Shown: positions 34,601 through 37,600 of the stretch, piece by piece | Layout of the letters: every line of letters begins with the position of its first letter | Numbering within the stretch: position 1 is the first letter of the stretch | Assembly (NCBI RefSeq): GCF_013167455.1 | Contig: NZ_CP038328.1 | DNA length: 64,000 bases | Strand: one strand, 5' to 3' | Origin: Escherichia coli O157:H7 | GTDB taxonomy: Bacteria; Pseudomonadota; Gammaproteobacteria; Enterobacterales; Enterobacteriaceae | Made by a program: the position numbers

Positions 34601-37600
34601 GATCCGCACGTCGGGACAGGGCTGTATGACGATATTCTCGGGCTGATGCGACGTTACCATTTGACGCCCGTCATCACTCAGGAGGTGGGCGAGGCAATGA
34701 CCATCATCGGTCTGGTTTCCGCCGGTCTGGGTGTTTCAATTTTGCCTGCGTCATTTAAACGTGTTCAGCTCAACGAAATGCGCTGGGTGCCGATTGCTGA
34801 AGAGGATGCGGTTTCTGAAATGTGGTTGGTCTGGCCGAAACATCATGAACAAAGTCCAGCTGCGCGTAACTTTCGTATTCATCTGCTGAATGCTCTCAGG
34901 TGAGGGAAATTTCAGCGAAAAAGCCCGAAAAATGTGCTGTTAATCACATGCCTAAGTAAAAATTTGACGACACGTATTGAAGTGCTTCACCATAGCCTAC
35001 AGATTATTTCGGAGCGCGAAAATATAGGGAGTATGCGGTGGTTGCTGAAAACCAGCCTGGGCACATTGATCAAATAAAGCAGACCAACGCGGGCGCGGTT
35101 TATCGCCTGATTGATCAGCTTGGTCCAGTCTCGCGTATCGATCTTTCCCGTCTGGCGCAGCTGGCTCCTGCCAGTATCACTAAAATTGTCCGTGAGATGC
35201 TCGAAGCACACCTGGTGCAAGAGCTGGAAATCAAAGAAGCGGGGAACCGTGGCCGTCCGGCGGTGGGGCTGGTGGTTGAAACTGAAGCCTGGCACTATCT
35301 TTCTCTGCGCATTAGTCGCGGGGAGATTTTCCTTGCTCTGCGCGATCTGAGCAGCAAACTGGTGGTGGAAGAGTCGCAGGAACTGGCGTTAAAAGATGAC
35401 TCGCCATTGCTGGATCGTATCATTTCCCATATCGATCAGTTTTTTATCCGCCACCAGAAAAAACTTGAGCGTCTAACTTCGATTGCCATAACCCTGCCGG
35501 GAATTATTGATACGGAAAATGGCATTGTACATCGCATGCCGTTCTACGAGGATGTAAAAGAGATGCCGCTCGGCGAGGCTCTGGAGCAGCATACCGGCGT
35601 TCCGGTTTATATTCAGCATGATATCAGCGCATGGACGATGGCAGAGGCCTTGTTTGGTGCCTCACGCGGGGCGCGCGATGTGATTCAGGTGGTTATCGAT
35701 CACAACGTGGGGGCGGGCGTCATTACCGATGGTCATCTGCTACACGCAGGCAGCAGTAGCCTCGTGGAAATAGGTCACACACAGGTAGACCCATATGGTA
35801 AACGCTGTTATTGCGGGAACCACGGCTGCCTCGAAACCATCGCCAGTGTGGACAGTATTCTTGAGCTGGCACAGCTGCGTCTCAATCAATCCATGAGCTC
35901 GATGTTACATGGGCAACCGTTAACCGTGGACTCATTGTGTCAGGCGGCATTGCGCGGCGATCTGCTGGCAAAAGACATCATTACCGGGGTGGGCGCGCAT
36001 GTAGGACGCATTCTTGCCATCATGGTGAATTTATTTAACCCACAAAAAATACTGATTGGCTCACCGTTAAGTAAAGCGGCAGATATCCTCTTCCCGGTCA
36101 TCTCAGATAGCATCCGTCAGCAGGCCCTTCCTGCGTATAGTCAGCACATTAGCGTTGAGAGTACTCAGTTTTCTAACCAGGGCACGATGGCAGGGGCTGC
36201 GCTGGTAAAAGACGCGATGTATAACGGTTCTTTGTTGATTCGTCTGTTGCAGGGTTAACATTTTTTAACTGTTCTACCAAAATTTGCGCTATCTCAATTT
36301 GGGCCAGGAAAGCATAACTTAGACTTTCAAGGTTAATTATTTTCCTGGTTTATATTTGTGAAGCATAACGGTGGAGTTAGTGATGCTGAAGCGTTTCTTT
36401 ATTACCGGTACAGACACTTCTGTAGGGAAAACGGTGGTTTCCCGCGCATTGCTACAAGCGTTAGCCTCCCAGGGAAAAACGGTTGCGGGATATAAACCCG
36501 TAGCGAAGGGGAGCAAAGAGACACCCGAAGGGCTGCGTAATAAAGATGCCCTGGTGTTGCAGAGTGTTTCAACCATCGAACTGCCTTATGAAGCAGTTAA
36601 TCCTATCGCGTTAAGCGAAGAAGAAAGTAGCGTGGCGCACAGTTGCCCAATCAATTACACCCTCATTTCAAACGGCCTGGCAAACCTGACCGAAAAAGTC
36701 GATCATGTCGTGGTAGAAGGGACTGGCGGCTGGCGTAGTCTGATGAATGATTTGCGTCCACTCTCTGAATGGGTGGTGCAGGAACAACTGCCGGTGTTGA
36801 TGGTTGTCGGTATTCAGGAAGGTTGCATTAACCATGCACTGCTAACAGCTCAGGCGATTGCCAACGACGGGCTGCCGCTCATTGGCTGGGTGGCTAACCG
36901 AATCAACCCAGGACTGGCGCATTATGCGGAAATCATTGATGTGCTCGGTAAAAAACTTCCGGCACCGCTCATTGGTGAACTGCCTTATCTGCCGCGCGCC
37001 GAACAGCGTGAACTGGGGCAATACATCCGCTTAGCTATGCTGCGCAGTGTGCTGGCGGTAGATAGAGTCACGGTGTAACGTCCGCGAGATTACCGACGCA
37101 ATTACGCAGGCAATCAATAAACCGGGGAGTAGCTGATACTCCCCGGTCATTTCACATATCATCAACGTCGACATAATCGGCGCGTGCGTGGTTGCCGCCA
37201 ACAGTGTCGCCATCCCGGTCAATCCGAGTAAAAGCGTAATTTCTTCGCCATCAGGGAACCATAATCCCAGACTACGACCATACAACATGCCAATGGCAAG
37301 ACCGATAAATAGCGTCGGTGTAAAGACACCACCGGGTGCGCCGGAACCGCTACTCGCCAGCACGGCACACAGTTTACAAAGGAAGATCCCGGCAATGATC
37401 ATTAACAGTGGCGGGGCGGTTAAAAAGGATTGTACGGTGCTATAGCCGTTGCCCCACACTGCAGGTGTGAACAGGGAAAGCAGACCCACGATCAACCCGC
37501 CTAGTGCCAGTTGCCAGGGCGGCGCAAGTTTGAGACTCACAAATCCACGATGACAGGCGTTCATTAACGTTAACAACAGTGGTCCGCACAGACCTGCCAG

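Follow-up and report, generated by a model that had tools for sequence, protein, structure and literature searches.

A conserved ynfK-sense RNA hairpin inside clcB as a probable 3'-end element at a convergent coding overlap in Escherichia coli

ynfK and clcB are convergent genes in a 64,000-nucleotide (nt) stretch of Escherichia coli O157:H7 DNA (contig NZ_CP038328.1 of assembly GCF_013167455.1; hereafter, the window). YnfK is a paralogue of the dethiobiotin synthetase BioD, and ClcB belongs to the ClC-type chloride/proton transporters. The 3' coding ends of the two genes overlap, and an inverted repeat within the clcB coding sequence, just past the ynfK stop codon, folds into an RNA hairpin in the ynfK sense (Table 1). 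The orthologue comparison covers 80 loci from distinct Enterobacteriaceae species, and it supports a role of the hairpin as a ynfK 3'-end element, which is held to be likely.

Table 1. Features of the ynfK-clcB junction, in window positions
Feature	Position	Strand	Description
ynfK (K-12 bidA; PGAP bioD)	36383..37078	+	231 amino acids (aa), BioD (dethiobiotin synthetase) paralogue; open reading frame (ORF) list, RefSeq
clcB	37031..38287	-	418 aa with the K-12 start, ClC-type chloride/proton transporter paralogue; ORF list, RefSeq
Convergent coding overlap	37031..37078	.	YnfK codons 217-231 + stop; ClcB codons 404-418 + stop
YnfK-specific C-terminal tail	37043..37075	+	residues 221-231, extending past where the BioD fold ends
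Rho termination region peak	37088	+	10 nt past the ynfK stop; K-12 1666514 (-), PMC7815308 Supplementary file 2, coordinate converted
RNA hairpin, ynfK-sense	37121..37147	+	arms 37121-37131 / 37137-37147, 11 base pairs (bp), 5-nt loop
Candidate rut region	37200..37320	+	C-over-G-rich ynfK-sense (clcB-antisense) RNA, ~50-170 nt past the hairpin; from composition

The overlap and the two C-terminal tails

The ORF list and the sequence agree on a shared stretch of 48 nt, which in each gene makes up 16 codons, the stop among them. ynfK ends with a TAA at 37076-37078 on the plus strand, and clcB ends with a TAA at 37031-37033 on the minus strand, which reads TTA on the plus strand. The reading frames run antiparallel and in exact register, with codon position 1 opposite position 3 and position 2 opposite position 2, and each TAA stop faces a TTA leucine codon of the partner gene. 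The original prediction, made from the window alone, had placed the overlap at exactly these positions, and RefSeq agrees for both O157:H7 and K-12. Its proviso that the overlap held "with the starts chosen" is immaterial because the two stop codons alone set the overlap.

In the RefSeq O157:H7 annotation, taken from chromosome NZ_AP018488.1 (100% identical to the window), bioD/ynfK spans locus positions 3084-3779 and clcB spans 3732-5024. The same 48 nt are shared in K-12 MG1655, where clcB lies at 1665315..1666571 and bidA (b1593) at 1666524..1667219. The overlap is therefore not new, being already present in the K-12 reference annotation. The segment is found in 5,420 of 5,426 complete E. 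coli genomes.

Both overlapping ORFs are real protein-coding genes. YnfK residues 3-220 match the E. coli BioD structure 1a82 at 2.9e-65, ClcB matches ClcA (ClC-ec1) structures at about 1e-26, and ynfK is directly activated by FNR (PMC3688515). Each stop codon lies inside the partner's frame, as in genuine convergent overlapping pairs. That two genuine genes overlap here, and not a chance ORF run-on, is regarded as practically certain.

clcB is convergent on ynfK and overlaps it in every species with an intact clcB (65 of 65), over a range of 27-66 nt. The commonest length is 48 nt (33 species), followed by 45 nt (15), 66 nt (13), 27 nt (three) and 39 nt (one). Judged from this distribution, the 3' coding ends appear to have overlapped since before the Enterobacteriaceae genera split. 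The 27-nt form occurs in L003 (recorded as E. coli strain E69), L064, L071 (Superficieibacter), near locus positions 3670-3696, where ClcB stops seven codons sooner, directly after ...SIYR or ...SIYH. Since ClcB is seven codons shorter in these three loci, its last tail residues are dispensable in some lineages. At another locus (L084, 3751-3754; GCA_031553655.1), a distant ClcB-like gene of 45% identity shares 4 nt with a convergent M28/M20 peptidase gene.

YnfK is 231 codons long in all 80 species. The last BioD residue (L224 of 1a82) pairs with L220 of YnfK, which leaves an 11-residue tail found only in YnfK. Its motif, ..L-x-V/A-D-R-x-x-A, is kept with or without clcB: the 12 species that lack clcB retain L224, D227, R228 and A231 in a protein still 231 residues long. 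The codons differ between the two groups. Where clcB is present, V226 is GTA (invariant, and opposite a Tyr codon of ClcB), R228 is AGA or CGA, and A231 is GCG; where it is absent, R228 is CGT, CGC or CGG, A231 is GCC among others, and position 226 changes from V to A. Because the residues are kept in the clcB-less species while the codons relax, the tail is under protein-level selection of its own, and ClcB further freezes its synonymous sites where clcB is present. The ClcB tail, ...SRTLRxDSIYRQHxAEH, is kept across all genera. Distant ClcB-like proteins stop 2-4 residues past "SIY", and ClcB is about 5-8 residues longer. Together, the alignments indicate purifying selection on both tails and a dual-coding function of the shared 48 nt.

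These comparisons bear on the suggestion in the original prediction that one C-terminus may be shorter than its ORF. The orthologue check proposed there, run here over the 80 species, gave the opposite outcome, as neither ynfK nor clcB ends earlier. An annotation artefact, in which one protein appears too long owing to a frameshift, a sequencing error or a wrongly called C-terminus and the overlap is not dual-coding, has its precedent in the many annotated convergent overlaps above 60 bp that are artefactual 3' extensions (PMC2478687), and YnfK does exceed BioD by 11 aa. The stops are unambiguous, however, the region is nearly universal in complete E. coli genomes, the YnfK length is constant, the ClcB tail residues are shared across genera, and the YnfK tail keeps its amino acids where clcB is gone and its codons are free to drift. 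Such an artefact is thus extremely improbable, and a mis-annotated terminus of either protein is ruled out by the orthologue alignments.

The gene at 36383-37078 carries three names: ynfK in older literature, bioD in about 5,400 E. coli genomes annotated by the Prokaryotic Genome Annotation Pipeline (PGAP), and bidA in the current K-12 RefSeq, where the product of b1593 is "dethiobiotin synthetase BidA". The PGAP name clashes with that of the genuine bioD, which belongs to the bio operon. A literature search on bidA with dethiobiotin returned nothing relevant within the papers available, and a homologue search aimed beyond the family yielded no relative below 86% identity; nearly all were 231 aa long. 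A genomic SELEX (systematic evolution of ligands by exponential enrichment) peak of the LysR-type regulator HusR (YnfL) lies on ynfK, between clcB and dgsA/mlc (older K-12 coordinates, 1,664,668; PMC12844172 Table 1); its intensity is low (72), and no HusR box is listed. The clcB start also varies among annotations, with ATG 38287 in K-12 RefSeq (418 aa), ATG 38323 in PGAP O157:H7 (430 aa), and a frame that stays open to GTG 38347 (438 aa).

A ynfK-sense hairpin in the clcB reading frame

The hairpin begins 42 nt past the ynfK stop codon, and its arms form a 100% complementary inverted repeat. The RNA has a predicted folding free energy of -21.5 kcal/mol (z = -6.1 against shuffled sequences), and the stem pattern occurs once in the window, with 0 occurrences expected by chance. 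It lies within the clcB codons ACC GGG GAG TAT CAG CTA CTC CCC GGT, which encode T-G-E-Y-Q-L-L-P-G. The tyrosine of this motif aligns with the Tyr in the ClcA sequence "DNYQL", which is Tyr445, the residue that binds the central chloride. On the plus strand, the 3' flank of the hairpin is UCAUUUCAC (also read TCATTTCAC) in all 66 clcB-containing species. It contains no U-tract, and the Glu-Met-Thr codons of clcB fix its sequence. A search of Rfam with the hairpin assigned it to no family; two sub-threshold matches (expectation values of 0.5-1) reached about 23 bits, where the gathering scores are 55-56.

Pairing is conserved across the 66 species, with 93% of alignment cells paired, a figure that falls to 21-44% once the partner columns are shifted. 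One stem pair swaps from G-C to C-G alongside an E-to-Q replacement (GAG/CTC to CAG/CTG). In a consensus-folding (alifold) scan of 640 nt, the hairpin reaches -16.3 kcal/mol on the plus strand, the same columns reach -5.7 kcal/mol on the minus strand, and the next best structure reaches -6.9 kcal/mol.

The stem is also visible in the synonymous sites of clcB. Among 158 conserved four-fold degenerate sites, mean third-position entropy is 1.47 bits and only three sites have zero entropy; two of these three, Thr398 (ACC) and Pro405 (CCC), are in the stem. The stem codon Gly399 (GGG/GGA) ranks seventh in synonymous conservation among the same sites. Other conserved clcB prolines favour CCG, unlike the CCC of P405. 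On a neighbour-joining tree, no change is seen in the stem third positions (columns 16 and 37), whereas the majority of degenerate third positions nearby change 10-27 times. In the 3' arm, C changed to T 18 times independently (columns 31 and 34), and every one of these changes yields a G.U pair in ynfK-sense RNA and a C.A mismatch in clcB mRNA. The converse substitution, G-to-A in columns 16 and 37, is never seen on the tree, and G.U wobbles occur only in the plus sense among the 66 species. Taken together, these comparative patterns point to selection on the hairpin structure, specifically in ynfK-sense RNA, and the substitution pattern argues against a function on the clcB-sense strand.

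Genomes without clcB provide a second view of the stem. clcB is entirely absent in 12 of the 80 species, most of which also lack ynfEFGH-dmsD. The linkage of mlc to ynfK is universal, and the ynfEFGH-dmsD-clcB block is gone after ynfK in L013, L016, L032, L043, L045, L055, L059, L060, L073, L075 and L078; L039 keeps dmsD and ynfH and lacks clcB. Since the block is missing there in many species, the site directly after ynfK is a recurrent rearrangement point. Most clcB-less genomes carry a hairpin 5-28 nt past the ynfK stop, and in five of the 12 it is the same stem, in each case in the variant of its own clade, 9-28 nt past the stop. In Trabulsiella (L045, L075) and Lelliottia nimipressuralis (L073), the stem is CCGGGCAG..CTGCCCGG, and L045 retains CATTTCAC, the sequence that follows the stem in clcB. 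In two genomes of the Citrobacter amalonaticus group (L016, L013), the stem is (C)CGGGGAG...CTCCCC(GG), followed by T7 and T8, respectively. L039 and L043 carry unrelated canonical terminators in the same spot after ynfK. Persistence of the stem after clcB loss is the pattern that would be expected if the stem is needed by ynfK and not by clcB.

Partial losses of clcB also occur. In L021, L049 and L052, only a 3' remnant of clcB is left, namely the last 56-109 codons beside ynfK, hairpin included. In L011 (Citrobacter sp. Awk 4), clcB is a pseudogene with an in-frame stop within the hairpin-encoding motif (GEYR-stop-LPG).

Termination of ynfK and clcB transcripts

A published Rho termination region lies at the ynfK stop. 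In K-12 the site is 1666514 (-), and Adams et al. (2021, PMC7815308) list it as "primary" with respect to ynfK and as antisense to clcB. DirectRNA-seq reads upstream and downstream of it number 85 and 11 without bicyclomycin (BCM) and 292 and 159 with BCM, for a Rho score of 4.2 (p = 1.5e-6; PMC7815308). Because the drop in ynfK-strand reads at the ynfK stop is Rho-dependent, antisense read-through into clcB is actively limited. Bicyclomycin also lifts reads upstream of the site, within ynfK (85 to 292), which hints that Rho limits transcription entering ynfK or that induction is indirect. A promoter scan was uninformative, with three sites compared with 2.7 expected.

The original prediction had held that the overlap leaves "no room for separate terminators". 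There is indeed no intergenic space, but the implication was wrong, as the hairpin at the ynfK 3' end sits in clcB coding sequence. Because intergenic space is lacking, the 3'-end signal of ynfK is probably written in the clcB reading frame. In the proposed mechanism, the ribosome would leave at the ynfK stop, and the untranslated clcB-antisense RNA would fold into the stem-loop 42 nt downstream. Rho would end transcription in the region of the ynfK stop and hairpin, with its loading site presumably downstream of the hairpin. The stem-loop most likely blocks 3'-to-5' exonucleases and sets a stable end for ynfK mRNA, so that the base of the stem would mark the mature 3' end, and it may double as a weak intrinsic terminator. 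In lineages that lost clcB, and with it the coding constraint, the stem stayed by the ynfK stop, and in two Citrobacter lineages the gain of T7-8 turned it into a canonical intrinsic terminator. This combination of an ancient dual-coding overlap, Rho-dependent termination of ynfK and a protective stem-loop embedded in clcB is considered probable.

Several observations weigh against it. The Rho score derives from 800-nt windows, which makes the position of about 37088 approximate and does not place termination relative to the hairpin. The downstream/upstream ratio with BCM is only 0.54, and part of the read loss is thus Rho-independent and unaccounted for. The curated Term-seq tables of PMC7815308 list no 3' end for ynfK or clcB, an absence that may reflect low aerobic expression of FNR-activated ynfK, and the supplements of TERMITe (PMC12207403) likewise hold no entry for either gene. 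The candidate rut region has a C:G ratio of 1.5-1.67 (80-nt windows, 37200-37320, plus strand) compared with 0.83 over the ynfK coding sequence, a weak signal of composition only. On the side of the stem, double-sided covariation is thin, at about two events on the tree, as the E/Q column changes only twice. Complementarity of the arms is partly inherent to the Thr-Gly...Pro-Gly protein motif, and a distant homologue has a weak 5-bp version. Three very distant ClcB-like genes that are not next to ynfK (45-49% identity) are without a clean hairpin, although this sample is small and distant.

The same observations can be read in other ways. The hairpin could be a self-sufficient intrinsic (Rho-independent) terminator of ynfK for which Rho is inessential. 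A GC-rich stem of 8-11 bp is kept in all genera, the same stem followed by T8 (L013) or T7 (L016) in clcB-less genomes is a textbook terminator, and about half of the read loss remains with BCM. This is nevertheless unlikely, given the flank UCAUUUCAC in every clcB-containing species, the failure of the terminator scan to find a U-tract on the plus strand, and the assignment of this site, in published data, to the Rho termination regions (score 4.2; PMC7815308). The hairpin could alternatively serve clcB, through pausing of ribosomes or RNA polymerase, mRNA stability, or premature termination when the message is untranslated, or it could be a mere by-product of the T-G-x-Y...L-P-G motif and codon bias. 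The motif is conserved in the ClC family, Gly and Pro codons are inherently complementary, the distant homologue shows the weak 5-bp version, and in E. coli it was the minus-strand version, with its T-rich flank (UUUAUUGAUUG), that the terminator scan reported. The minus-strand consensus fold is weak, however (-5.7 compared with -16.3 kcal/mol), and its T-rich flank is not conserved outside Escherichia. The 18 independent substitutions unpair the clcB sense and give G.U in the ynfK sense, never the reverse; the stem is fixed for rare codons, CCC and GGG/GGA, contrary to clcB codon preference; and the stem persists in genomes wholly without clcB. A clcB-directed role or a by-product is accordingly given very little probability.

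The overlap itself could also be kept to couple the two genes, through RNA polymerase collision or a 3'-end RNA duplex, with FNR-driven anaerobic ynfK transcription tuning clcB or the converse, and with the hairpin positioning the collisions. This corresponds to the mutual transcriptional interference that the original prediction gave as its other option. The convergent overlap is conserved family-wide, ynfK is FNR-activated, and the read loss is partly insensitive to BCM. In addition, a collision model for E. coli holds that a nascent stem-loop sets the collision point of convergent genes (bioRxiv 10.1101/2022.10.23.513370). The bidirectional terminators of that model are Rho-independent, however, while this site scores as Rho-dependent, and selection on the hairpin is one-stranded. 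ynfK does not need the arrangement, as both its tail and a terminator hairpin persist where clcB is absent. Coupling therefore seems doubtful, less probable than an intrinsic terminator and more probable than a hairpin that serves clcB. A specific form of it, in which FNR-induced anaerobic ynfK transcripts, antisense to the clcB mRNA 3' end over at least 70 nt up to the hairpin, modulate ClcB via an RNase III-cleaved duplex or collision, is likewise a long shot. If true, it would make the family-wide overlap more than a frozen accident and link anaerobic biotin metabolism to a chloride/proton transporter, with the hairpin determining how long the antisense segment is.

The clcB side of the junction shows less structure than the ynfK side. 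A consensus fold of the minus strand over 400 nt of ynfK found no conserved clcB 3'-end structure, with nothing stronger than -5.7 kcal/mol; windows reached this value only over the hairpin columns and none did so inside ynfK. Past the clcB stop, the E. coli sequence folds with z = +0.48. Outside the overlap, the 80-species comparison detected no cluster of frozen synonymous sites in ynfK. clcB transcripts presumably end inside ynfK, either by Rho acting on untranslated antisense-ynfK RNA or by polymerase collision. In E. coli, the clcB-sense hairpin (37105-37148, minus strand) is followed by TTTATTGATTG and was flagged as terminator-like by the consensus scan, 89 nt before the clcB stop; the T-rich minus-strand flank is specific to Escherichia among the genera compared. 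The 5' part of clcB contains an imperfect inverted repeat (window 38020-38060) with 14-nt arms, 79% complementarity and a 13-nt spacer.

The ynfK-clcB junction offers a checkable example of how bacteria may solve a lack of intergenic space, by holding an RNA 3'-end element in the synonymous sites of a convergent gene. The lineages that lost clcB serve as natural experiments, as they kept the stem and some made a textbook terminator of it. Synonymous recoding of the clcB 3' end (codons ~375-418), or its deletion, can be expected to change how ynfK/bidA mRNA terminates or how stable it is, and YnfK is truncated in a clcB knockout that takes the last ~50 nt. Such elements will escape terminator predictors that skip coding regions. 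These findings leave current understanding unchallenged and describe ordinary biology.

Comparison with known convergent overlaps and 3'-end elements

In 2002, Rogozin and colleagues reportedly described prokaryotic gene pairs with conserved convergent (tail-to-tail) overlaps. Like known pairs of this kind, ynfK and clcB share 3' coding ends over a multiple of 3 nt, place each stop opposite a TTA leucine codon, and keep the arrangement in orthologues. Convergent overlaps make up 7% of overlaps among well-characterised gene pairs and are the only orientation with long true overlaps (Palleja et al. 2008, PMC2478687). Those surveyed are mostly found "only in very close species" (PMC2478687), whereas the ynfK-clcB overlap is kept family-wide, in at least 65 species of many genera. 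At 48 nt, it falls under the 60-bp threshold for a "long overlap" used in that survey.

Canonical intrinsic terminators consist of features that the junction shares in part. A GC-rich hairpin stands shortly past the ynfK stop, and the clcB-less copies in L013 and L016 carry T7-8; elsewhere, a U-tract is lacking. Unlike such terminators, the hairpin is flanked by UCAUUUCAC in E. coli and in every clcB-containing species, and the site responds to Rho inhibition.

Bidirectional terminators between convergent E. coli genes (Ju et al. 2019, as relayed in bioRxiv 10.1101/2022.10.23.513370) are described as intergenic and Rho-independent. The ynfK-clcB junction resembles them as a convergent pair with 3'-overlapping transcripts and a nascent-RNA stem-loop at the junction. 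It differs in that its hairpin is intragenic, under selection on one strand, and at a site of reported Rho dependence. Action on both strands without Rho is not the pattern found here: the fold is strong on the plus strand alone (-16.3 compared with -5.7 kcal/mol), and the wobbles are one-sided.

A further counterpart is a class of Rho-dependent transcripts which, according to Dar and Sorek (2018, PMC6061677), end just past stable stem-loops without U-tracts, with rut sites downstream. These stem-loops guard against PNPase and RNase II. The ynfK hairpin fits this class in two features, a stable stem-loop without a U-tract and read-through that rises on Rho inhibition (literature reads, PMC7815308), and a stretch with C in excess of G downstream is a candidate rut region. 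What sets the ynfK hairpin apart is that it lies inside the coding sequence of a convergent gene and appears to be maintained by clcB synonymous sites; the ynfK 3' end is placed at the stem base by analogy. Set beside these systems, the junction is a little unusual in that a hairpin is kept family-wide through the synonymous sites of another gene and its "release" into a canonical terminator is visible.

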